A stretch of 58,240 nucleotides of DNA. Origin: a virus (lineage: Duplodnaviria > Caudoviricetes). Position 1 is the stretch's first letter. Every line of letters begins with the position of its first letter. Positions 18,700 through 51,842 of this stretch are shown piece by piece. Both the position numbers and the translations under genes were made by a program. The stretch spans positions 1-58,240 of the IMG/VR virus record IMGVR_UViG_3300005326_000051; one strand, written 5' to 3'. The notes beneath the pieces are model-generated. The model searched no databases, was not told the origin of the DNA, and was given only the letters and a program-made list of their open reading frames with translations.

Positions 18700-19170
18700 T
18701 CATATATACATCTCCAGCAAAGTTGCTAGTTCCTCTACGTTTCTTACGCGCTGATGAGAAAGCTGAATACATCTGTTGTAAGGTCTATCTATGACGATTA
18801 CCTTAGAGTAATCTGCAAACAGTGGATAATCATCGACAAGTACATCGTCTTCACTAAGTAGTTGAAGTTTATGTGCATCATAGATAACGTGTCCAGTAGG
18901 TAAGTGTTGCTGCAACCATATTTTAGTATGCTTAATCCATGACTCTGGCTGAGAAGTTATAACGTGTACAGGATTAAATCTGCTTACTATGTAGTTGAAG
19001 TACTCTGTTACTGGTGCAACTTCAAGAAGTTTTGGATGCTTAGAGTAGTACTTTACTACACTTAAACCACTTATTTTCTCTGTCCAAGCTAGTGGACAGT
19101 ACCCAAGATGACCGTGCAAGTCTCTTAATACCTGATCAAGATCAAAATAAATCATACAACATTCCTCCAA
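18700..19170 (-). CDS. HAD-family 5'(3')-deoxyribonucleotidase-like protein
   Basis: YFDLDQVL (HAD motif I), VITSQP, LVDDYP, IDRPYNR. Confidence 0.75.
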   Translation of the reverse strand: MEECCMIYFDLDQVLRDLHGHLGYCPLAWTEKISGLSVVKYYSKHPKLLEVAPVTEYFNYIVSRFNPVHVITSQPESWIKHTKIWLQQHLPTGHVIYDAHKLQLLSEDDVLVDDYPLFADYSKVIVIDRPYNRCIQLSHQRVRNVEELATLLEMYI

Positions 19171-21539
19171 CTAATATCAACATCCTTACCTTCACCCCAA
19201 GAATCTCCAACTTTAAAGTCAACGTCGATGTAGAATTCTTCTCCTCTGAATGGAATAGGAATTAACATTTTCGAGCGCATGAACTTAATAGTATCCATAA
19301 CATTCTCTTCACGGCAAAGAACGTATACTGCATCGTGAAGCTGAAGTAGAATGTGTAATTCGTAGAGCAGATCATCTAATGAGTCGTACATACTAAGTAA
19401 AGCCTTGTTTAACAAATCGCCAATACTTGATTGAGGTATATACGAGTACGCACTACGGAAAAGCTCATCACCCCACCTATCAAGAAATCTATGCTTCCTT
19501 CCAAACAAGTTTGTCAAAGTCTTAGTAGTCTTCAACTCACGCTGAATATTCTCGTACCATACACGAAGCTGAGGATTGATAGCATGGTAGGCCTCCATCA
19601 AATTCTTTGCTTTATTTATCTTGATACCAAGTCTGTTCGCAAGAACTGTTGGGCCAGCTGAATAACTTGCAGCATGGCGAATTGTCTTACCAATCTTTCG
19701 TAACTCGTCTGTCACTTCTGCGATAGTTATTCCCATCATCTGTGCAATAGTTAACTTGTGAATATCGTAGTTAGTTTTTTCTGTCTTTGACATTCCAAAT
19801 GAGTCATTAAACATCTTGATAAGTTTATAATCACCAGTCAGGTATGCAACCGCAACAGCTTCAGCTTGGCAATAGTCACCTTGTACTATCTTCCAACCAG
19901 CTGGTGCACGGTACATCTTCCTTGCTTCAGAAGGTATGTTCTGCAGATTTCCACTACCAAACGGCATAATAATTGAAGCGCTTGAACTCCATCGACCAAA
20001 GCTACGCTTCGTTTTCTTTGTGTCTTCCTCGTCGTCGCTAGATGCTCCAGTAATGTTGTAACTTGTATATACTTTATCTTCTGGAGAAAGCTCTATATCA
20101 AGGAAGTTCTCAATCAAAGTATTCGCCTTTTTATAGTCAAGAATCAGGTTGAATACCGGATTGTCTGGTACAAGTCTTGCCAGTGTACGAAGCGCATTAG
20201 CATCTGCTGTCATTGTTCTTGCATCTTCCTTAGCCTTTCGACGTTTATACTGCACTGGAAGTTTTAAGTCAATGTAAAGAAGCTGGCACATTTGCTTCGG
20301 AGAGTTGAAGTTGATTTCCCTCTTAAGTATCTTGTCAAGTTCAGCTTTGTACTTAGTACGCTTGTCCTTCCACAAGTCAGTCAACTTTGTTTGAGTTTCT
20401 CTGTCTACCTTAATACCTTGCAACTGCAGCATAAGTGCAACTGGAATCAAGCTCATCTCGAACTCAAAGGTCTTCATAATGTTCTGACGTTCAAGCTCAG
20501 CACGAAGAACTCTTGCAATACCGAGAGTATTTGCTGCATCAGCAGGATTGTAGTCCTGCGACTTAACAGACTTTGCTTTCCACGGAGCAACATTGAGGCA
20601 TACACTGCCGAGGAACCCTAAATCACGCGGAAGTTCTGGCCAGCAAACATGCGCAGCAATAAGCGTGTCCATATATATTTTTGAAATCAGTATATGGTTA
20701 TTAGCCCACAAGACTCCAGTATCGTATGCACCATTCTGCATAACAATTTTCTTACGTGCTACAAGTTCTGCAAACGTTTGCCAGACAAGAAGTTCATCCT
20801 TCTCTGGTAACGCAGCAGCGCGTCCTTTAATTAAGAATAAAGACATACCAAAGTTTGGGTCATGACTGAGACCAAGTTCTTCGATATGACTACCAGGTTG
20901 AATAGTCTCAACATCGACAGATAGCTCCTTAAACTCTTCATGCTCAATCAGAAAACGCATATAGTCTATGAAAGTCTTTGCATTTACATTTGGCTTAAAT
21001 ACTTGACAACACTCAGGCATTTCAGAAGTATCTGCATTTCTTCCTGCTTTGCGTAAGTCAAGTACAGTCTGGAAGTATAGCTTCCAATCACGATTAATTG
21101 CTGCTGGATGATAGGTTCCTATAACCTTCTTTCCAGGTACAAGCGTGCAAGGAAGTATATACCCACGGAAGTCAGAGATATGCTTCTCCCCAGTCAAAGC
21201 CCATAGTGCTGTTGCACCGAGAGCTACAATGATATTTGGCTGGTATAGTTCAATGTCATGTTTCAGCATTGCAATCCATGCAATAAGTTTTGGCTTAGGA
21301 ATTGTACAGGCTTTATCCTCAAAGTATAAGGATATTCTGTTATCTGGCGGACGCTCTCTTGCCACGTTTGTAACAAGGCATTGATAACGAGATATACCAG
21401 CCTGAGAAAGCAAGTTGTCAAGAGTCTGTCCAGCATACCCAACAAAAGGCTTACCAGCATCATCCTCTTCTCGTCCAGGTGCTTCGCCAACGAACATGAT
21501 CTTAGCATCCATCGGGCCTTCGGTATTTACTAACATCAT
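19152..21539 (-). CDS. polA: uracil-DNA glycosylase (family 4-like) fused to a family A DNA polymerase with 3'-5' exonuclease
   Basis: UDG motifs GEAPG, PFVG.AG, RPPDNR, TYHPAA. Exo motifs DVET, NGAYD. Pol motifs GRWSS, NLQNIP, DYCQAE, RKIGKTIRHAASY, QLHDA. Confidence 0.92.
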   Translation of the reverse strand: MMLVNTEGPMDAKIMFVGEAPGREEDDAGKPFVGYAGQTLDNLLSQAGISRYQCLVTNVARERPPDNRISLYFEDKACTIPKPKLIAWIAMLKHDIELYQPNIIVALGATALWALTGEKHISDFRGYILPCTLVPGKKVIGTYHPAAINRDWKLYFQTVLDLRKAGRNADTSEMPECCQVFKPNVNAKTFIDYMRFLIEHEEFKELSVDVETIQPGSHIEELGLSHDPNFGMSLFLIKGRAAALPEKDELLVWQTFAELVARKKIVMQNGAYDTGVLWANNHILISKIYMDTLIAAHVCWPELPRDLGFLGSVCLNVAPWKAKSVKSQDYNPADAANTLGIARVLRAELERQNIMKTFEFEMSLIPVALMLQLQGIKVDRETQTKLTDLWKDKRTKYKAELDKILKREINFNSPKQMCQLLYIDLKLPVQYKRRKAKEDARTMTADANALRTLARLVPDNPVFNLILDYKKANTLIENFLDIELSPEDKVYTSYNITGASSDDEEDTKKTKRSFGRWSSSASIIMPFGSGNLQNIPSEARKMYRAPAGWKIVQGDYCQAEAVAVAYLTGDYKLIKMFNDSFGMSKTEKTNYDIHKLTIAQMMGITIAEVTDELRKIGKTIRHAASYSAGPTVLANRLGIKINKAKNLMEAYHAINPQLRVWYENIQRELKTTKTLTNLFGRKHRFLDRWGDELFRSAYSYIPQSSIGDLLNKALLSMYDSLDDLLYELHILLQLHDAVYVLCREENVMDTIKFMRSKMLIPIPFRGEEFYIDVDFKVGDSWGEGKDVDISWRNVV

Positions 21540-29080: not shown

Positions 29081-30424
29081 TTAAATATAAACCGTCTTAA
29101 TCTTTTCATACTCCTGGATAAATCGAATGACTGCTTCCGACCAGCCACTAATATGCACCCAGCCGTTGTCGTACCCGACTCCATTCTGATACCCAGCTAC
29201 GTTTATAATGTAGCCTTTATCATACGGAGCACAGGGTCGATCTGCAGATTGCTCATCAGTAATAACAATAAGTCTTTCGCACTGTGGAAATACTTTGTAA
29301 ATATAGTCTACGGCTTTGCCGAGCTTAGTCCGCGTTGGATTAATCTTTTCCTTTACTGCTGCAAGCATAGCAAAACCTTTTCGCGGAGCAATCTCAACGC
29401 AGTCTTCAGCAAAAGTAAACAGCCGGAAACCTCTATCTTCACAAAGCTCTCTACATAGAATGCCAACTGCACCGGCTGCATCGAAGCGAGTGATCTCGGA
29501 CTTTGCTGAGATCGTGTTCTGCATTGAGCCGGAGTGATCAATCAGCAGAGCAGTCTTCCCACTCAGCTTCTCCATGCTTTGTACTGCTTTTAGCATAGGA
29601 ACTTCAAGGTGTATTTCAAGGTGCGGAGCATACTTGGCGGCTGAAATGAAACGGAAAGGAAGAATATTACTTGTCTTCATAGTAGAGAGTGCTTCAATAA
29701 TTAAGTCCTCATCTACATCAGCCTGAGTCATGTTCCTTAGATTCCGCAGGAGAGCCAGCCCGCCAAGTTTACGCTCACGCAGTAAACGCTCAAATGTTTC
29801 TTTCTTATCTTTACCAGCTGACAGTGCAACTTCCCATGTATCAGGTACAGCAAGCTGGTCGTCTTTAAGACGCCGAAACAACTCACCCTGCTCAGCAGTC
29901 AGTGGTTTCGGATGACATATTTTCAGCACGTCCTTCAGTTTAATCTCGTTCGGCTTGTTGTATTTGGCCAGTTGATACTCATTAAACTTAGTGAAAGCCT
30001 TTGCCAGCCCACGTTTTACCTGTCCAGATACAGGAGATTTCTTAAAGGTCTTCTCACCTTCCCAGTAAATAGCAAGGAACTCAGCAAGTTCATCTGGTCT
30101 CTGAACAATTTGCGCAAGCGTATCAGCAACAACATGCTTATGTGAGTCAAGTGCTGCCATGGTTCTGGTGATGTAAAGTGGAGTATGTCGAAGGTTGTAA
30201 ATACTTCGTACATCTACAGCAATCTGCGCGACAATTTCAGGTTTAACTAACGGAATGAGATTTTTAATTCTTTCGGCTTGTGACTCTCCATCCTCGTAGA
30301 AGTTATTCTCCCACAACAGACAGCAACAAACTGTGCGTCTAAGCATTTGCTCCGGTGTAATTCTTGAAGCAACTGCTCCTTCATACGTTCGGATAGGTTC
30401 TGCAGGTACATTTTTTCTTGCCAT
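29081..30424 (-). CDS. rsr: Ro60/Rsr-like TROVE-domain RNA-binding protein with C-terminal vWA domain
   Basis: TYEGA...LRR...LWENNFYEDG, RPDELAEFLA, FNEYQLAKY, HPKP, TWEVALS, ALLRNLRNM, LPFRFISA. MIDAS motifs DHSGSM and ITDEQ. C-terminal HISGWSE. Confidence 0.95.
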   Translation of the reverse strand: MARKNVPAEPIRTYEGAVASRITPEQMLRRTVCCCLLWENNFYEDGESQAERIKNLIPLVKPEIVAQIAVDVRSIYNLRHTPLYITRTMAALDSHKHVVADTLAQIVQRPDELAEFLAIYWEGEKTFKKSPVSGQVKRGLAKAFTKFNEYQLAKYNKPNEIKLKDVLKICHPKPLTAEQGELFRRLKDDQLAVPDTWEVALSAGKDKKETFERLLRERKLGGLALLRNLRNMTQADVDEDLIIEALSTMKTSNILPFRFISAAKYAPHLEIHLEVPMLKAVQSMEKLSGKTALLIDHSGSMQNTISAKSEITRFDAAGAVGILCRELCEDRGFRLFTFAEDCVEIAPRKGFAMLAAVKEKINPTRTKLGKAVDYIYKVFPQCERLIVITDEQSADRPCAPYDKGYIINVAGYQNGVGYDNGWVHISGWSEAVIRFIQEYEKIKTVYI

Positions 30425-30453
30425 GTTTCTCTTCTCCTTTAAGTTTTATTTGA

Positions 30454-30625
30454 TTCTAGGGTACAATCGCTTACAGTTTCAAGGTAGCCTTACTGCTACC
30501 ACGGTTGTCAGCTCTCGATAAAACTGCTGCATGTTTTACAGGATTTGAACCTGCTCGTCCGGCATATTTCAGCTGGACTTAATCCAAGTTTTATTATGAA
30601 GTAACTGTAAACTACACCACTAGAA
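30454..30625 (-). ncRNA. Y RNA (YrlA-like, 172 nt) with internal T-arm
   Basis: Ends pair (TTCTAG/CTAGAA). 5' GGTGTAG-TTTACAG-TTACTTC and 3' CTGTAAG-CGATTGTACC module. Internal GCAGG-TTCAAAT-CCTGT and three more hairpins. Adjacent to the TROVE gene. Confidence 0.8.
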
Positions 30626-30640
30626 CTTGTTAGCAAAATC

Positions 30641-30830
30641 TTGGCAGCAGTAAATCTACCATACTTTCTTCACCCGTTAACGCTACCATACTGAGTCAAG
30701 GTTCTGACCATCTACTCTACGTCCGTTGCTTGCCACAATCTAAAAACTCTAGAACTCTTCTCACGTACTTCTCGAGAACTCGTAAGGTAGTAATTAAGGT
30801 GGCAACCCCGTTTCGGTTTACTGCTACCAA
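30641..30830 (-). ncRNA. unassigned ~190-nt structured RNA within the Ro60 RNA array
   Basis: 16-bp closing stem TTGGTAGCAGTAAACC/GATTTACTGCTGCCAA (one G-U, one mismatch). Inner stems TTGCCAC/GTGGCAA and GGTCAG/TTGACT. No ORF. Confidence 0.6.
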
Positions 30831-30839
30831 AGTAAAAAC

Positions 30840-30916
30840 TACTGTAGAGTATAATCGTAATCAGCATTTGTCATACACCATAGAATGAAGTAACTGATTA
30901 CTACGCTACTACAGTA
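30840..30916 (-). ncRNA. minimal Y RNA (77 nt; putative Ro-binding module only)
   Basis: TACTGTAG-TAGCGTAG-TAATCAG-TTACTTC-loop-CTGATTA-CGATTATACT-CTACAGTA. Confidence 0.8.
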
Positions 30917-30926
30917 AATTGTTAAG

Positions 30927-31061
30927 TGGACAGGGTATAGGATTCGAACCTATGCTTAAAAGTGCCTGGTGAAGTATCTCTTTTGTACGGCATAGTTTTC
31001 ACTAGCGAAAATCCAAAAAAGTCTTTTCTAACTTTTGCCTTACCACTTGGCTAACCCTGTC
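30927..31061 (-). ncRNA. tRNA-shaped RNA (135 nt) with the anticodon loop replaced by a 67-nt permuted Y-RNA module
   Basis: G-ACAGGGT/ACCCTGT-CCA acceptor, D arm GCCAAGTGGTAAGGC, anticodon stem AAAGT/ACTTT, T arm ATAGG-TTCGAAT-CCTAT. Insert CTTTTTTG-GATTTTCG...GCCGTA-CAAAAGAG-ATACTTC. Confidence 0.82.
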
Positions 31062-31062
31062 A

Positions 31063-31192
31063 TGGGGACGGAGGCAGGATTCGAACCTGCGGCCTCGTCA
31101 TTAGTAGTGAAGTAACTGTGATCTACGCTACATTTCTGAGAGTAATCGAGCACAGAAATTTTCGCGCTCTAACCAACTGAGCTACTCCGTCC
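31063..31192 (-). ncRNA. tRNA-shaped RNA (130 nt) with the anticodon arm replaced by a permuted Y-RNA module
   Basis: G-GACGGAG/CTCCGTC-C-CCA acceptor, D arm GCTC-AGTTGGTTA-GAGC, T arm GCAGG-TTCGAAT-CCTGC. Insert CTGTG-CT-CGATTACTCT-CAGAAATG-TAGCGTAG-AT-CACAG-TTACTTC. Confidence 0.88.
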
Positions 31193-31236
31193 ATTGTTCA
31201 AAGATCGTAACACCTTTTCTTATTGTTTATGTGTGT

Positions 31237-31265
31237 ATCATACACCCGTTTTTTAAAGTTGTCAA
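31237..31265 (-). promoter_or_regulatory. sigma70-type promoter for the RNA array / Ro60 operon
   Basis: TTGACA-17 nt-TATGAT, about 45 nt upstream of the first RNA. Confidence 0.85.
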
Positions 31266-31927
31266 TAAAAATATCATAGACTTCAAGATTCTTTTTTATC
31301 TTTGTTTTTATTTTTATTTGCATAAGAAATATACAAGATTCCAACATACACGCCGAAAGCACTTATTAGTATAAATGCGGCAAAAACAGCACTTAAACTA
31401 ATAATGTAGTAAGTCCATGCTGCTGCTACTATGAGTATTATACTCCACCCAATAGCTCTCATATCTCTTCTCCTTCTTCTGTAGTATATTCTTCTATTCT
31501 TTTTTATCCTTATTTCCCCAGTATACAAGTACTAATCCCATAACAATCACAGTAATGCTTGCAAGTATAAGCCAAATAAAGGGGTACTCAGCCGCAATCC
31601 AGAAACTCCAAGCTGACAACACAACATAAACCATCATCCAGCCAACTACTTTCATACCTTCTTCATCCTCCTCAATCTTCGTTCCATTCTCTTTACCTGT
31701 TCAACAGTTCTACCACGTTTTATCTGCCGTAGTCCCTTGTTATTATGATGCCTGCGCGTTTTCATTTACTTCACCAAGGCAGTCGACTGTACCAGTAAGT
31801 ACATCGTTTACTTTGTTCATTGGGCAGAGATCGCATCCAATACTACCAACGAAGTGCGGCTTTCCATGAGGACACTTAGTCATACAAAGAAGATGAATGC
31901 CCTCGCTTACTACCACATACTTTATCT

Positions 31928-46189: not shown

Positions 46190-48661
46190 ATGGAATTAAC
46201 AGGAAGTAACATTAACAAGGCAGTCTTGAATAGATTGAAAGAGTGGAAGAATTCTCCACTTCAGTTTGTTAAAGAATGTCTTCATGCTACTCCATCTGAG
46301 CAACAGATTGATTTCCTTCTTAAACTAGCAAAAGAAAAGCGTATTACGATTAGGTCAGGGCATGGTTGTCATGCAGCAGGTACTATAATTCATCTTTATC
46401 CATACGGGTTTAAAGCTGTGGAAGATGTAGAAGTTGGAGATCTTCTTATGGGTGACGATAATACTCCTAGAAGAGTTCTTGAACTGTACCGTGGCAAAGA
46501 AGAAATGGCGCGAGTCAAGTATTCTGATAATACTTATTACGATGTAAATATGAGCCACAAACTTGCACTAGTTTGTACTGGAAGTAAAGGTAAGTATAAA
46601 TCTGGTGATATGTTTGAGATGTCTGTACGAGAATTTTTAACTTGGCCTGAATGGAAAAGAAAAAGATTTGCTGGTTATAAAGTAGCAATAGACTATCCAG
46701 AAATTCCTGTGATGATTCCTCCATATATTCTTGGTATGTGGCTTGGAGATGGGTCACATAACGCTATTGAAATAACTAATATTGATACTATGTTAATAGG
46801 TATATGGCAGTTATTTGGTGAAGCTAATGGTTTGAGCATGACTACGACTTCTGATAAACTGCATAGACTTGTAGGAGATAAAAGTATTGTTAATGATGCT
46901 TTTAAACATTATGGCTTGTTTGGTAATAAGCATATTCCAAAAGAATATTTGTTTAATTCTAAAGATGTGAGACTTAAGTTACTTGCTGGTCTTATAGATA
47001 CAGATGGGTATGCTGATACTAGAAGTGGACTACAGTTTCAGATAATTCAGAAGAGAAAAGATTTAGCAGAAGATATACTATTTCTTGCTCAGTCATGCGG
47101 TATTCACGCTACTCTTACATCCAAAATAAAAAGTTGGGAGTACAAAGGGCAAGTAAATTATGATACTTACTACGAAGTTCATATGTCTCGGAATACTGAA
47201 CAAATTCCTACACAGTTAAAACGTAAGCAGTCTACTGAAGATTATAACAAGCAAAGAAGTAATCTGCATTTTGGAATATCTATTGAAAAATTACCAGAGA
47301 ATAGTTATTATGGATTTGAAGTAGATGGAAATCATCTGTATGTTCTTGGTGACTTTACTGTAACACGAAATACTGGTAAGGATGCCAGTGCCGCATGGGC
47401 AATCTTGTGGTTTTCGACCACTCGCGCCTACGCTAAAGTTGCCTGCACCGCTCCAACAAATCGGCAGTTGAAGGACGTTTTAGTTTCCGAGATTTCAAAG
47501 TGGTTACGTGGGTCAGAAATTGCTGATGAGTTCGTAATTCGCAAGGAAATAATCTTTCACAAAGAAGCTCCACGTGAATGGTGGATAAGGTTTATCTCTC
47601 CATCAGTTCGTGCTACAAAGGAAGAACAGGCCGAAACTCTGGCTGGGTTGCATGGCGATCATTTACTTATAGTTTGTGACGAGGCCAGCGGTATTCCTGA
47701 CCCCACATTTATCCCACTTGAAGGAGCTATGACCCAGCCAGACAATAAAGTTTTGCTTATTGGAAATATGACTAAGAACACTGGTTATTTCTATGATACC
47801 CATTTTCATAGTGAGATTTCCAAAGACTGGTGCAAACTTCACTGGGATAGTAGGCAGTCGTCTAACGTTGATAAGTCAATGCCTGAGTACTTTGCAAAGA
47901 AGTATGGTATTGACTCTGACGTATACAGAATTCGTGTTATGGGTGATCCTCCTGTGCAGAACACGAACAGCCTTATTCAGTTGTGGACTGCTGAGCAGTG
48001 CATTGGAAACGAGATACTGGTTGCGGAGGATGAGCCACTTTATCTTGGTGTTGACGTTGCAAGATATGGCGATGATGCTTCTATTATCCTCCCACGACAG
48101 GGCCTGATTATCCATCCTTGGGAAGAGTTTAGAAAACTTAATACCATTGATCTTGGTGGATTTATTATGCAGACGTACCAGGAAGTTGGAGCACATGGCT
48201 GTGCTATTGACTCTATTGGAGTTGGTGCTGGAGTTGCTGACTGGCTTGAGAAGCATAACCTTGAGAACCTGTTTCAGATTAATGTTTCTACTTCTTCTAG
48301 TGATATTAAGAAATACAACCGTCTTCGTGATGAGTTGTGGTGTAGAGTTCGTGATAATTGCTTATTAGGTAAATACTCTTTCCCAGATGTCATTATAGAC
48401 GGAGAGAAGGAATCGTTGGGAAGACAGCTTGCGAATGAGCTTGCCACTGTGCGGTATAAGTTTAATGGGCATGGAGGCTATGTTGTTGAGTCTAAGAAGG
48501 ATATGCGGGCTCGTGGTGTTGCCTCTCCGAACATAGCTGATGCGCTCTGTCTTACGGAGTACTTCTCCAACGATGCTACAAGAGTTTTCGCTAAACCAAA
48601 AGAAGAGCCAAAAAGAAACTATAGTGACAGACAGTGTTCTGCGCAGTCATGGATGAGTTAA
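46190..48661 (+). CDS. terL: terminase large subunit containing an intein
   Basis: Spliced Walker A SGHG/TGKD, CTAPT, LAGLHG, VCDEASG, IGNMT. Nuclease motifs LGVDVARYGDD, IDSIGVG, SPNIADAL. 488 aa after splicing. Confidence 0.95.
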   Translation: MELTGSNINKAVLNRLKEWKNSPLQFVKECLHATPSEQQIDFLLKLAKEKRITIRSGHGCHAAGTIIHLYPYGFKAVEDVEVGDLLMGDDNTPRRVLELYRGKEEMARVKYSDNTYYDVNMSHKLALVCTGSKGKYKSGDMFEMSVREFLTWPEWKRKRFAGYKVAIDYPEIPVMIPPYILGMWLGDGSHNAIEITNIDTMLIGIWQLFGEANGLSMTTTSDKLHRLVGDKSIVNDAFKHYGLFGNKHIPKEYLFNSKDVRLKLLAGLIDTDGYADTRSGLQFQIIQKRKDLAEDILFLAQSCGIHATLTSKIKSWEYKGQVNYDTYYEVHMSRNTEQIPTQLKRKQSTEDYNKQRSNLHFGISIEKLPENSYYGFEVDGNHLYVLGDFTVTRNTGKDASAAWAILWFSTTRAYAKVACTAPTNRQLKDVLVSEISKWLRGSEIADEFVIRKEIIFHKEAPREWWIRFISPSVRATKEEQAETLAGLHGDHLLIVCDEASGIPDPTFIPLEGAMTQPDNKVLLIGNMTKNTGYFYDTHFHSEISKDWCKLHWDSRQSSNVDKSMPEYFAKKYGIDSDVYRIRVMGDPPVQNTNSLIQLWTAEQCIGNEILVAEDEPLYLGVDVARYGDDASIILPRQGLIIHPWEEFRKLNTIDLGGFIMQTYQEVGAHGCAIDSIGVGAGVADWLEKHNLENLFQINVSTSSSDIKKYNRLRDELWCRVRDNCLLGKYSFPDVIIDGEKESLGRQLANELATVRYKFNGHGGYVVESKKDMRARGVASPNIADALCLTEYFSNDATRVFAKPKEEPKRNYSDRQCSAQSWMS
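46367..47371 (+). mobile_element. intein with LAGLIDADG homing endonuclease in the TerL P-loop (335 aa)
   Basis: Starts CHAAGT, ends DFTVTRN with +1 Thr. LGMWLGDG and LAGLIDTDG motifs. Confidence 0.93.
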
Positions 48662-48884: not shown

Positions 48885-51842
48885 ATGACTAGTGAAAAAG
48901 AGCAGAAAATTTTAACAGAAGCTAGAGATAGACTTAAAAAAGCTATAACAGATGATGATGAGAATCGTCGTCTTGCGTATAATGATCTAGAGTTTATTGC
49001 TATTGAAGGTAAGCAATGGCCAGACGCTATTCGAGTAGAGCGTGAAGCGAATAATCAACCATGCTTAACTATTAATAAACTTCCAGCATTTGTTGATCAG
49101 GTAGTTGGTGATCAGAGAATGAATAGGCCATCTATCAGAGTTGTTCCGGTTGACTCGTATGCGGATAAAAAGGTGGCAAGAATTCTTAGTGGCTGGATTA
49201 AGCATGTGCAGAATATCTCAAAGGCTGATATTGCAGTAGATCACGGTTTTGAACACGCAGTAACCTGTGGTTATGGAGCAATAAGAGTAGTTACGAAGTT
49301 CCTGTCTGATACTTCTGTTGATCAACAAGAGGCTTTTATTGAGAAAGTTGAAAACGCGCTCGCAGTTTACTGGGGCAAACATAAGGAGTATGACTGTTCT
49401 GATGCAAAGTATTGCTTTATAGTATCTGATATTGATAGAGAAGAGTTTGAAGATAAGTATAAAGTTCCTCCAATGCCGTTTAACTATACTGATAGTCAGT
49501 ATGTTGAAGGTTGGTGTACTAACGAAACAGTTAGAGTTGTTGAGTACTTTGTGAAAGAACCCACTGAAAGAATGATTTATCTGCTTTCGGATGGTAGAAC
49601 TGTAGATAAAGTCGAGACAACTGATATCGTTGTAAAGAAAAGAAATGTAAAGTCACATAAGATTATGTGGTATTTACTTTCTGGGAATAAAGTTCTTGAC
49701 AGTAAAGAGTGGGCAGGAAAGAAGTATATTCCTGTTATTCCTATCTGGGGCAAAGAACTTAACGTCGGTGGAAAGAAGGTTATTCGTGGACTTATAAGGA
49801 ATGGAAAAGATGCTCAAAGAATGTATAATTACTGGCAAGCTCTTGACTTAAATACGCCTATTCCAATTCCTGGTGGATGGACTACTATGAAAGATGTAGT
49901 AGTCGGCAGTCAGCTTTTTGACGAAGCTGGTAAAGTATGTGAAGTTACAAACATAAGTCCTGTTTTTCTTAATAGAAACTGTGCTGAAGTTCTGTTTGAT
50001 GACGGCTCTGTCATTACTGCTGACGTTAAACATCTATGGACTGTTGAAGAAAGAGGAAAGAGAACTTCCCGTTCCTATAGTTGGACTAAGCGTACTATTA
50101 CTACAGACCAATTAATTCCAGGAAAGCATTTTATCTATGTTGCTGATCCTTTAGATTTACCTGCTCAAGAACTTCCTATAGATCCATATGTGCTTGGTGT
50201 ATGGCTTGGCGATGGTTCTGTTAGAGATGTTGTTATAACACAAAGTAAGGATGATTGGTCAGAACTTTCACAGCATCTTAGTAAGTGTGGATGTCAGTTT
50301 GGTACTAGTACTATAAAGGATAATTGCGTAGCAACGACATTGCTTGGAATGCGTAGCAAGTTTAGTGAGTTAAGTTTACTTGATAATAAGCACATTCCAT
50401 ACTTGTATGTAAGAAGTTCAAAAGAGCAACGACTACAACTGCTGCAAGGTTTAATGGATACAGATGGTTCAGTAAATACTGTTAACGGGCAGTGTAGTTT
50501 TACTACTACAAGTGCAGAGATTGCTAAAGGATTTTCAGAGCTTATAAGAACTCTTGGTATTAAATCTAGTTTCTTGGTTAGAAATAGAAACGGAGCTAAT
50601 GTTTTTGATAATGCTAAGTTGCAATACCAGTTTAGCTTTACTACTAGATTAAATGTATTTAAATTATCAAGAAAGCTTAAAGGTATTGGAAATGTTAAAG
50701 AAGAAGTACGAAGAACTAAAAGGTACAAGATTAAAAGTGTTACTCCAGTTTTGTCTGTACCAGTTAAGTGTGTTACTGTTGATAGTGCGTCATGTTTGTA
50801 CCTTGCTGGAGTTGGTATGGTTCCTACGCATAATTCGTGCGATACTGAAGTGGTTGCACTTCAACCAAAGACTCCATACCTTATTACTCCGAAGCAAATT
50901 AAGGGTCATGAAGCACAGTGGAAAGATGCACACAGACGAAACTTCCCATATCTCTTAGTTAACTTTGATGAGAAGGCTCCGGGCTGGCCAAAAAGAGAAT
51001 CTCCTCCACAAGCTTCGAGTGCTATGGTTGAAAAGATTCAAATGGCTGATCAGGAAATGCGTGATACTATGGGCCTGCAGAAAGCAAGTCTTGGTATGCA
51101 GAGTAATGAAAGGTCTGGATCTGCAATAAGGGAACGTAAACTTGAAGGTGATGTTGGTACGTTTGCCTTTATTGATAACCTTTCACGCTCGATACAGCAG
51201 GTTGGAAGAATTTTGGTTGATATAGCTCCGGTAATTCTTGATACGCAGCGAATAGTACGACTTGGACTTGAAGATGGAGATTTTGAGTTTGAAGAAGTAA
51301 ATGTACAGGACAAAGAAAATCCTCAGCAGATTATGAATGATCTGTCTATTGGTACTTACGACGTTACTGTTACTGTTGGCCCAAGCTTCACTACACAAAG
51401 AACCGAAGCACGGCAGTCAATGCAGGAATTTATTCAGTACAATCCAAATGCAGCACCGTTGATTGGTGACTTGTACGCTAAGTTGATGGATTGGCCAGGA
51501 GCAGATGAGGTATCAAAGAGACTTGAGTACCTACTTCCTCCAGAAATACGTACTGAGATCATTACTAAGCGTGCATTGAAGGAAGGTAAAGAACCTCCTC
51601 CACAACCAGGAAGTGAATCTCAGCAACCTGACCCGACTATGGTGTTGAAGATTCAGACTGAACAAGTTAAACTTCAGGAAGCACAGATTAAGTTACAGCA
51701 GGAGCAAGCTAAGCTTGAGGAGATTAAGTTAAGGCAGCAGTTAGCTATTGCTGAATCTAGACAAAGAGTTTCTGATATGGTTGAAAAACTTATAGCAGAG
51801 AAACTTGGTGAAAGGGAAAAGGAAAATGCCGAAAGGGACTAA
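48885..51842 (+). CDS. portal protein (P22-like) containing an intein
   Basis: GKQWP, PCLTINKL, YIPVIPIWG, DAQRMYNYW, SGSAIRERK, GTYDVTVTVGPSFTTQR. 653 aa after splicing. Confidence 0.93.
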   Translation: MTSEKEQKILTEARDRLKKAITDDDENRRLAYNDLEFIAIEGKQWPDAIRVEREANNQPCLTINKLPAFVDQVVGDQRMNRPSIRVVPVDSYADKKVARILSGWIKHVQNISKADIAVDHGFEHAVTCGYGAIRVVTKFLSDTSVDQQEAFIEKVENALAVYWGKHKEYDCSDAKYCFIVSDIDREEFEDKYKVPPMPFNYTDSQYVEGWCTNETVRVVEYFVKEPTERMIYLLSDGRTVDKVETTDIVVKKRNVKSHKIMWYLLSGNKVLDSKEWAGKKYIPVIPIWGKELNVGGKKVIRGLIRNGKDAQRMYNYWQALDLNTPIPIPGGWTTMKDVVVGSQLFDEAGKVCEVTNISPVFLNRNCAEVLFDDGSVITADVKHLWTVEERGKRTSRSYSWTKRTITTDQLIPGKHFIYVADPLDLPAQELPIDPYVLGVWLGDGSVRDVVITQSKDDWSELSQHLSKCGCQFGTSTIKDNCVATTLLGMRSKFSELSLLDNKHIPYLYVRSSKEQRLQLLQGLMDTDGSVNTVNGQCSFTTTSAEIAKGFSELIRTLGIKSSFLVRNRNGANVFDNAKLQYQFSFTTRLNVFKLSRKLKGIGNVKEEVRRTKRYKIKSVTPVLSVPVKCVTVDSASCLYLAGVGMVPTHNSCDTEVVALQPKTPYLITPKQIKGHEAQWKDAHRRNFPYLLVNFDEKAPGWPKRESPPQASSAMVEKIQMADQEMRDTMGLQKASLGMQSNERSGSAIRERKLEGDVGTFAFIDNLSRSIQQVGRILVDIAPVILDTQRIVRLGLEDGDFEFEEVNVQDKENPQQIMNDLSIGTYDVTVTVGPSFTTQRTEARQSMQEFIQYNPNAAPLIGDLYAKLMDWPGADEVSKRLEYLLPPEIRTEIITKRALKEGKEPPPQPGSESQQPDPTMVLKIQTEQVKLQEAQIKLQQEQAKLEEIKLRQQLAIAESRQRVSDMVEKLIAEKLGEREKENAERD
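49839..50834 (+). mobile_element. class 3 (Ala1, W-C-T) intein with LAGLIDADG endonuclease in the portal (332 aa)
   Basis: Starts ALDLNTPIP. Block B HLW, block F VKCVTV, block G PTHN with +1 Ser. LGVWLGDG and LQGLMDTDG motifs. Confidence 0.92.

Follow-up and report, generated by a model that had tools for sequence, protein, structure and literature searches.

The window, by which we mean the whole stretch of DNA analysed here, is a complete virus record of 58,240 bases that encodes a P22-like portal and coat protein, a family A DNA polymerase and other phage genes. On its minus strand two tRNA-like RNAs stand in tandem between a sigma-70-like promoter and a gene for a Ro60/Rsr-type protein (Table 1), and each of them has a G at position -1 opposite C73. 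Copy 1 reads AATG-GACGGAG...CTCCGTC-C-CCA-TG, and copy 2, which starts one base after it, reads CCATG-ACAGGGT...ACCCTGT-C-CA-CTT. A first-pass annotation had claimed the G-1:C73 pair for both copies and had described copy 2 as one C short of a CCA end; all of the coordinates were re-read by script and both statements hold, since copy 2 ends in CA. The Rfam tRNA model matches both copies end to end (model positions 1-71, at 31066-31191 in copy 1 and 30929-31060 in copy 2), and in this alignment 66 nt replace the anticodon loop of copy 2. ARAGORN called neither copy in a default run on the window; with its intron option it calls both, the position of the "intron" and the "Ser" anticodons being arbitrary. 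An intron-containing tRNA gene was considered and rejected, because the insert is a conserved, covarying Y RNA stem (see below) and the 20 aligned members of the family show no conserved anticodon loop. The minimum-energy folds of both copies close with an 8-bp terminal helix that includes G-1:C73, at modest z-scores (-2.23 and -1.84).

Table 1. Positions of the promoter, the two tRNA-like elements and their parts, and the Ro60-type gene in the window.
Feature	Position	Strand	Basis
Sigma-70-like promoter, TTGACA-17-TATGAT, ~45 nt upstream of copy 1	31237..31265	-	11/12 matches
Copy 1, putative Y RNA in tRNA order (G-1 to CCA)	31063..31192	-	Rfam tRNA 47.7 bits; model R1 130.9 bits; 8-bp terminal helix in fold
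Copy 1 G-1, preceded by A-3 and U-2	31192	-	sequence re-read by script
Copy 1 position +1	31191	-	sequence re-read by script
Copy 1 acceptor 5' strand GACGGAG	31185..31191	-	7/7 pairs with 31067-31073
Copy 1 D arm	31166..31182	-	Rfam tRNA match; ARAGORN intron option; alignment columns 13-29
Copy 1 strand CTGTGCTCGATTACTCTCA, equivalent to the 3' strand of the normal Y RNA stem	31137..31155	-	aligned with the CGCTTATTCC-type strand of relatives
Copy 1 GAAA loop closing the Y stem, where normal Y RNAs end	31133..31136	-	alignment
Copy 1 strand TGTAGCGTAG....CAGTTACTTCA, equivalent to the 5' strand of the normal Y RNA stem	31108..31132	-	recurring motif; covariation
Copy 1 T arm	31074..31090	-	Rfam tRNA match
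Copy 1 acceptor 3' strand CTCCGTC	31067..31073	-	sequence
Copy 1 C73 (31066), then encoded CCA (31065..31063)	31063..31066	-	sequence
Copy 2, putative Y RNA in tRNA order (G-1 to CA)	30927..31061	-	Rfam tRNA 49.0 bits; training row of alignment A2
Copy 2 G-1 and position +1	31061 and 31060	-	sequence re-read by script
Copy 2 acceptor strands	31054-31060 and 30930-30936	-	sequence
Copy 2 D arm	31037-31051	-	
Copy 2 Y-stem strands	31001-31021 and 30971-30994	-	
Copy 2 T arm	30937-30953	-	
Copy 2 C73, then CA	30929, then 30928..30927	-	sequence
Ro60/Rsr-type gene (TROVE + VWA), next gene downstream on the same strand	29081..30424	-	Pfam PF05731, E 6.7e-21

Along its full length (residues 11-440) the window's TROVE protein matches that of PDB 9KOP/9L5Y (E 4e-26), entries that PMC12135203 gives as Thermus phage phiLo Ro60 structures. 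Its gene lies about 500 nt downstream of copy 2, and the interval contains further Y-like RNAs. Promoter-like sites number 4 in this region against a mean of 5.1 in shuffles, so that the promoter match is weak evidence alone; identical hexamers with identical spacing precede a related element at locus L339.

Several smaller features were seen in the same interval, all on the minus strand. Directly after copy 2, at 30841-30915, lies a minimal Y-like hairpin without tRNA-like arms, in which the strand TAGCGTAG....CAGTTACTTCA, as in copy 1, is paired with CTGATTAC...CTACAGT. At 30641-30830 a 14-bp long-range helix of TTGGTAGCAGTAAA with TTTACTGCTGCCAA, including one G:T pair, encloses about 160 nt between Y RNAs, and an Rfam search of this region returned no match. 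A third Y RNA stands just before the Ro60 gene at 30456-30623; its strands follow the normal order, with the RNA ends at the Y stem, and it carries a T arm (30538-30554) with no clear D arm or acceptor hairpin, and a weak promoter-like site (30482..30453) overlaps its 3' strand. Elsewhere in the window, two large genes of the structural region (46190-48661 and 48885-51842, plus strand) carry homing-endonuclease and Hint domains. An 823-aa protein of this region has Hint and LAGLIDADG domains, the P22-like portal protein has a LAGLIDADG insert that separates two portal stretches, and both endonuclease-bearing genes are likely inteins. The family A DNA polymerase (19152-21539, minus strand) has an N-terminal domain of the uracil-DNA-glycosylase superfamily.

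Strand order of the Y RNA stem

Loci around relatives of the Ro60 protein were fetched in three sets (16, then 80 of the 180 relatives found, then 17), with some contigs repeated. Upstream of the related phage TROVE genes stand rows of RNAs that have their 5' and 3' strands in common: the 5' strand consists of a GGYGWAG-like motif, 6-7 bases and GWTACTTC, and the 3' strand of 6-7 bases followed by a CGCTTGTTCC-like motif. In many of these RNAs a T arm, a closed acceptor hairpin and a D arm lie between the two strands, which is the published YrlA plan, and a normal-order copy at L002 matches the Rfam YrlA model at 40.4 bits (E 1.3e-7), a significant score below the cut-off of 69. Both window copies reverse the order of the two Y-stem strands, connect them by a small loop and hold them between the D arm and the T arm. 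The insert of copy 1 runs CTGTGCTCGATTACTCTCA, GAAA, TGTAGCGTAGATCACAGTTACTTCA, and its elements follow one another as acceptor 5' strand, D arm, Y stem closed by GAAA, T arm, acceptor 3' strand, C73 and CCA. Since the strand order is reversed, the copies are circular permutations of YrlA, with the parts in tRNA order, the acceptor stem open and the Ro stem closed. The term "tRNA-Y chimera", which the locus had been given from its letters alone, has proved apt, as the insert holds both strands of the conserved, covarying phage Y RNA stem found upstream of TROVE genes, and we regard it as very likely that the two RNAs are Y RNAs in tRNA order. The window holds three instances of the 5'-strand motif, and 12 other viral stretches contain it as well. 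The corresponding strand of the Ro60-binding stem of YrlA is given as GNCGAAN0-1G (PMC4201824); by eye, copy 1 has AGCGTAG and copy 2 GCCGTAC at this place, each off at about two fixed positions, and the relatives have GGCGAAG or AGCGAAG.

YrlA (Rfam RF02553; Chen et al. 2014, PMC4201824) resembles the window elements in its place beside a Ro60/TROVE gene, in its tandem copies, in a stem, Ro60-binding in YrlA and putatively so here, with a conserved purine-rich 5'-strand motif that the two copies match in part, and in a tRNA-like body made of T arm, D arm and acceptor stem. The window elements differ in that they have their termini at the acceptor stem, where C73 is followed by CCA or CA, and have a loop-closed Ro stem, whereas the acceptor of YrlA is closed and offers no free CCA. 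Moreover, their best match to the Rfam YrlA model scores only 17.4 bits against the gathering cut-off, in the wrong register and across the junction of the two copies. A single normal YrlA made of the copy 1 T arm and the copy 2 D arm, as that match would have it, was rejected, since it would require the 3' acceptor strand of copy 1 to pair with the 5' acceptor strand of copy 2, to which it is not complementary. As the elements thus fail on both the closed acceptor end and the Rfam score, we file them as a permuted variant of YrlA and not as a member. YrlA is described in bioRxiv 10.1101/312249 as lacking a free CCA end and as like a circularly permuted tRNA with a closed acceptor loop, and that paper speculates that some YrlA might be processed toward a more tRNA-like form. 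In the published accounts that we drew on, Y RNAs are described only in this reverse, closed-acceptor arrangement, and none is in tRNA order, histidine-type or charged, although the supplements of PMC4201824, which treat phage YrlAs, could include tRNA-order cases; relative to these accounts the encoded, open tRNA order is a permuted variant.

Other arrangements of the same modules were seen among the related loci. At L009:2786-2848, L010:2785-2848 and L011:2822-2881 there is a third mode of joining, in which the Y stem replaces the acceptor stem of a tRNA core that keeps the order D, anticodon, T (Rfam tRNA positions 5-66 or 7-64). Some closed-order Y RNAs have an acceptor "loop" that resembles a tRNA 3' end followed by a leader, for instance C-CCA-ATTTTAT-G at L036:2210-2260, C-CTCAT-G at L102:2351-2390 and A-CCA-AT at L045:1298-1340, with further cases at L051:2105, L057:2147, L012:901 and L088:2237. 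These again fall into His-like and ordinary end classes, and by their loops they look as though they were built to be opened by RNase P in the manner of the Mycobacterium smegmatis YrlA.

The tRNA-order family and its -1:73 pair

Relatives were sought with a scanner that was blind to positions -1 and 73 and required the ACTTC motif along with a D arm, a T arm and an acceptor stem paired at 7/7 positions, with a covariance model (R1) built from 14 elements, and with two motif scans on the Y stem. The combined result was 21 tRNA-order Y elements on 15 contigs, the training sequences of R1 and of the alignment being mostly G-1:C73 members. For three of these contigs the RNA motif was the sole means of detection, and in each of them a Ro60/TROVE gene lies beside the element. 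The element at L014 (203 nt), which was found by the scanner and ARAGORN and missed by the model, is kept in the count; without it the G-1:C73 fraction given below becomes 13/20. Left out were L046 (G-1/A73) and L088 (U-1/A73), because they have no normal D arm and no model match there; L339, which scores 91.6 bits with 5/7 acceptor pairs and a G-1/A73-CCA end; and L036, L044/L317 and L071/L319, which are parts of closed-order arrays. Eleven of the model matches of 20-80 bits were inspected and are closed-order Y RNA junctions or other non-members, and the remaining matches in this range were judged by acceptor pairing only.

The alignment of 20 sequences supports the proposed structure. In it 96.5% of the cells are paired, a share that falls to 40-47% if the 3' partners are displaced by 1-3 columns, and 24 of the 27 pairs, including those of both Y-stem helices, vary on both sides; 0/500 shuffles reach the observed values. 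RNAalifold, unprompted, pairs -1 with 73 as an eighth acceptor pair. Full-length elements were absent from 80 TROVE loci of bacterial and archaeal genome assemblies, where the scanner matched only sequences without a normal D arm and R1 gave 2 partial matches (model positions 10-124), and a blastn search of window 30500-31700 against the phage collection returned no match. In metagenomes the pattern TTCYCCGAAAGGTRGCG occurs in at least 119 stretches; 80 were fetched and model matches were present in 2 loci (L221, which is new, and L235, which is the L041 contig), so most of these pattern matches are due to chance. A second scan with a Y-stem pattern gave 14 stretches.

The bases at -1 and 73 of the 21 elements are G/C in 14, T/A in 4, T/G in 2 and C/A in 1. 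As a control we used the tRNAs that ARAGORN calls in the window and in loci L002-L109 (223 calls, 172 of them distinct, 164 of these with at least 6/7 acceptor pairs, 157 of which are not tRNA-His). Among the 157, G is at -1 in 4, C73 is present in 8, T is at -1 in 86, and G-1 and C73 occur together in a single gene, a tRNA-Thr(TGT) ending in CCA at L002:1847-1922. The difference between 14/21 and 1/157 has a Fisher p of 7.7e-15, a value that must be read in the light of the relatedness of the phages, the 14 elements not being independent of one another. The suggestion carried over from the first reading, that homologues should keep the pair, is thereby borne out, and the relatives' bases at these two positions, far from random, divide into a His-like type and an ordinary type, the latter having U-1 and A73 or G73 and, in one case, C-1 and A73. 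Because T/A, T/G and C/A rank first, third and fifth among the ordinary tRNAs, the elements that lack G-1:C73 match ordinary tRNA ends, and the family looks two-state, His-like or ordinary, which is not what a general need for an eighth pair would give. A generic eighth base pair as the rule of the family was accordingly rejected: the C-1/A73 member is unpaired, and U-1 in the other six is the background state.

The G-1:C73 pair is kept while its surroundings change. The 13 aligned G-1:C73 elements are 47-85% identical (median 59%), and the 14 elements of this class have 13 different acceptor stems, only L034 and L058 sharing one. The elements L320 and L092b have the same acceptor stem and differ at -1/73 (T/A vs G/C), a coordinated change, and the phages at L041 and L330 each have one His-like and one ordinary-ended element, a pairing that fits with the ends being read as identities. 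The full CCA is encoded in 5 of the 14 and is absent from copy 2 and 8 others, so the C missing from copy 2 probably means little. On the other side, G:C stands at -1:73 in 13/20 and at two ordinary acceptor pairs in 12/20, which is no higher than at some of the pairs of the stem, and the conservation could for this reason reflect a G:C-rich 8-bp stem and not an identity mark. We nevertheless consider it highly probable that G-1:C73 is under selection.

The leader of the G-1 class is distinctive as well. It has U at -2 in 14/14 and A at -3 in 12/14, whereas ordinary tRNA leaders at the same loci have U at -1 in 90/164, A at -2 in 88/164 and ATG before +1 in 0/164. This displacement of the ordinary tRNA profile by one position suggests cleavage by RNase P ahead of G-1, which is probably kept in the mature form; in prokaryotic tRNA-His, G-1 is encoded by the gene and retained (PMC2995067). 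The ATG that is formed before +1 was also considered as a start codon and rejected, since the frames that it opens run for 5 to 46 codons and have no shared stop in 13 members.

These observations bear on the idea that G-1:C73 is a relic with no present role, inherited from a tRNA-His donor or from the closing C:G of the capped acceptor hairpin of a normal-order Y RNA. The members of the family are indeed related to one another, and among closed-order Y RNAs at the same loci G/C flanks the 7-bp acceptor stem in 9 of 74 matches with at least 6/7 acceptor pairs, a count that includes two CTTCGG loops and a few false matches at junctions of tRNA-order elements. A relic would hardly be expected, however, to persist while the seven adjacent pairs turn over as they do here, to stay together with U-2 and A-3, or to change in a coordinated way on one acceptor stem as in L320 and L092b, and we regard this explanation as very improbable.

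The tRNA-His genes of the related phages are themselves varied at these positions. Those with a GTG anticodon have G/C at -1/73 in L057:4974-5047, G/T in L082:5804-5877, T/C in L004:127-201, C/A in L013:4366-4438 and L096:4265-4337, and T/A in L088:1863-1938. Only 1 of the 7 distinct genes (8 genes when the identical L013 and L109 are both counted) clearly has G-1:C73. The mixture suggests that the rules of histidine identity may differ among the hosts; G-1:C73 is not used by all bacteria.

Proposed processing of the acceptor end and possible charging with histidine

The architecture of the RNAs, their link to the Ro60 gene, and a G-1:C73 pair that is enriched, conserved and preceded by a shifted leader lead us to propose the following pathway, of which the charging step is the most conditional. 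The two RNAs would be phage Y RNAs, partners of the Ro60 protein encoded just downstream, whose tRNA-like body consists of a D arm, a T arm and a 7-bp acceptor stem with open ends, and in which a loop-closed Ro60-binding stem replaces the anticodon arm. The promoter at 31265..31237 would drive their transcription, giving a leader of about 45 nt, and the transcript would also cover the further Y RNAs and, probably, the Ro60 gene. The pairing of G-1 with C73 would lead host RNase P to cleave after U-2, on the 5' side of G-1 and so one base ahead of the usual site, as happens with bacterial tRNA-His, and the 3' end would be trimmed or extended to CCA. The product would have the 8-bp acceptor end of the tRNA-His type that is the main mark for bacterial histidyl-tRNA synthetase (HisRS), and through this end it would be bound by HisRS and charged with histidine. 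We put the whole chain, from permuted Y RNA to histidine charging, at roughly 40%, and judge the odds of histidylation in the cell to be about the same.

What is known of HisRS bears on this pathway in both directions. According to PMC9976931, the enzyme charges 13-bp and 8-bp helices with G-1:C73, and moving this pair into an alanine minihelix confers histidine acceptance; the anticodon also matters for histidine charging in vivo, on the same authority. The end of copy 1 is complete (G-1:C73-CCA), and in copy 2 and the 8 other G-1:C73 relatives without an encoded CCA it would need to be completed or added. The absence of the anticodon, the second HisRS determinant, and the presence in its place of a long stem, possibly occupied by Ro60, count against charging. 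So do the mixed -1/73 bases of the tRNA-His genes in related phages, the existence of bacteria that do not use G-1:C73, the seven of 21 family members without the pair, and the nine of 14 G-1:C73 members in which a complete CCA is not encoded.

A His-type end might instead serve processing and stability only. It would set the RNase P cut and yield an 8-bp helix with a 3-nt CCA overhang that is never charged; such an end could keep exonucleases, and also other synthetases or EF-Tu, away from the Y RNA, and the tRNA-like body could tether Ro60 to some tRNA-binding factor, as has been proposed for YrlA. The M. smegmatis YrlA is a precedent, as it is cut by RNase P and receives CCA in vivo, an addition that the authors propose to be protective while raising aminoacylation as a possibility (PMC4201824). 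Neither this precedent nor the -1:73 pairing and the shifted leader needs charging, and the facts that G:C is no commoner at -1:73 than at other stem pairs and that CCA is encoded in a minority of the class also fit this reading. Against it, the eighth pair is not general in the family, the one C-1/A73 member and the background U-1 of the other six elements being what ordinary tRNAs show. If pairing alone were needed, C:G or A:U should also occur at -1:73, and they are seen in 0/21, which is a weak test because pairs with a 5' purine dominate the whole stem. A 7-bp acceptor stem, moreover, sufficed for RNase P in the M. smegmatis YrlA, the one closed-order Y RNA known from that account (PMC4201824) to be cut. 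Taken as the complete explanation, processing without charging is the main rival to the pathway above and seems to us somewhat unlikely. An 8-bp stem that sets the RNase P site, which the first-pass annotation had offered as an alternative to charging, is a step of the same pathway.

The His-like end could also act as a lure, binding HisRS unproductively or binding another reader of tRNA-His ends such as a host nuclease or a tRNA-His sensor, so as to bring Ro60 and its nuclease partners to the bound factor or to titrate that factor during infection. Y RNAs have been described as tethers between Ro60 and an effector (bioRxiv 10.1101/312249), a phage Ro60 with Y-like RNAs has been reported to bind host PNPase (PMC12135203), and phage TROVE genes are located within tRNA gene arrays. 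No candidate partner was seen among the window's genes, however, and the idea derives purely from architecture; we think it improbable.

Comparison with known RNAs shows where a histidine-accepting Y RNA would stand. The M. smegmatis YrlA is likewise a Y RNA that gains a tRNA-like acceptor end, but there the end is made by cutting a closed loop, which leaves two base-paired pieces, while here the open end is encoded and the RNA would be one piece. Bacterial tRNA-His has G-1:C73 followed by CCA (as in copy 1), a 7-bp acceptor stem, a D arm and a T arm; the elements differ from it in having no anticodon stem-loop or GUG, with a Y stem of 55-66 nt in its place, and they cannot decode. tmRNA offers a parallel in principle: it is a bacterial RNA that does not decode, and for the charging of its tRNA-like end a single acceptor-stem mark suffices, the G3:U70 pair, which PMC9976931 lists under alanine. 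The elements have neither G3:U70 nor a tag reading frame, and their partner would be Ro60, not SmpB. That they might be tmRNAs was rejected: ARAGORN made no tmRNA call, the 3:70 pairs are C:G and A:T, and the only Rfam tmRNA match is an 18-nt piece of the T arm at 10.9 bits. The histidine-accepting tRNA-like structures of plant RNA viruses are also viral RNAs other than tRNAs, and they are charged by HisRS, several of them without a histidine anticodon (PMC8127992). They differ, by the same account, in being the 3' ends of eukaryotic RNA virus genomes with a pseudoknotted acceptor arm in which an internal base substitutes for N-1, whereas the elements described here belong to a DNA phage and could have a real 5' G-1.

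The preferred reading, in which a permuted Y RNA is processed and charged like tRNA-His, would matter for the following reasons. Y RNAs of the YrlA type are known tRNA mimics, described with a closed acceptor, and the free acceptor end that is directly encoded here bears on what their tRNA-like half is for. Two thirds of the family carry the acceptor-stem mark reported to be sufficient for the charging of a small helix by HisRS, and since most relatives keep G-1:C73, the RNAs may be cut, and perhaps charged, like tRNA-His. In its strongest form, which we hold to be doubtful, Ro60-bound Y RNAs would be genuine HisRS substrates and a second class of aminoacylated non-decoding bacterial RNAs after tmRNA, with the A73 and G73 ends of their sister elements serving as other identities. 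A histidyl-tRNA-like end could then couple the Ro60 RNA-surveillance particle to EF-Tu, the ribosome or host amino-acid sensing, and Ro60 particles would be linked to translation or amino-acid sensing in phage infection. Even without charging, the family shows that tRNA and Y RNA modules have been joined in at least three gene orders.
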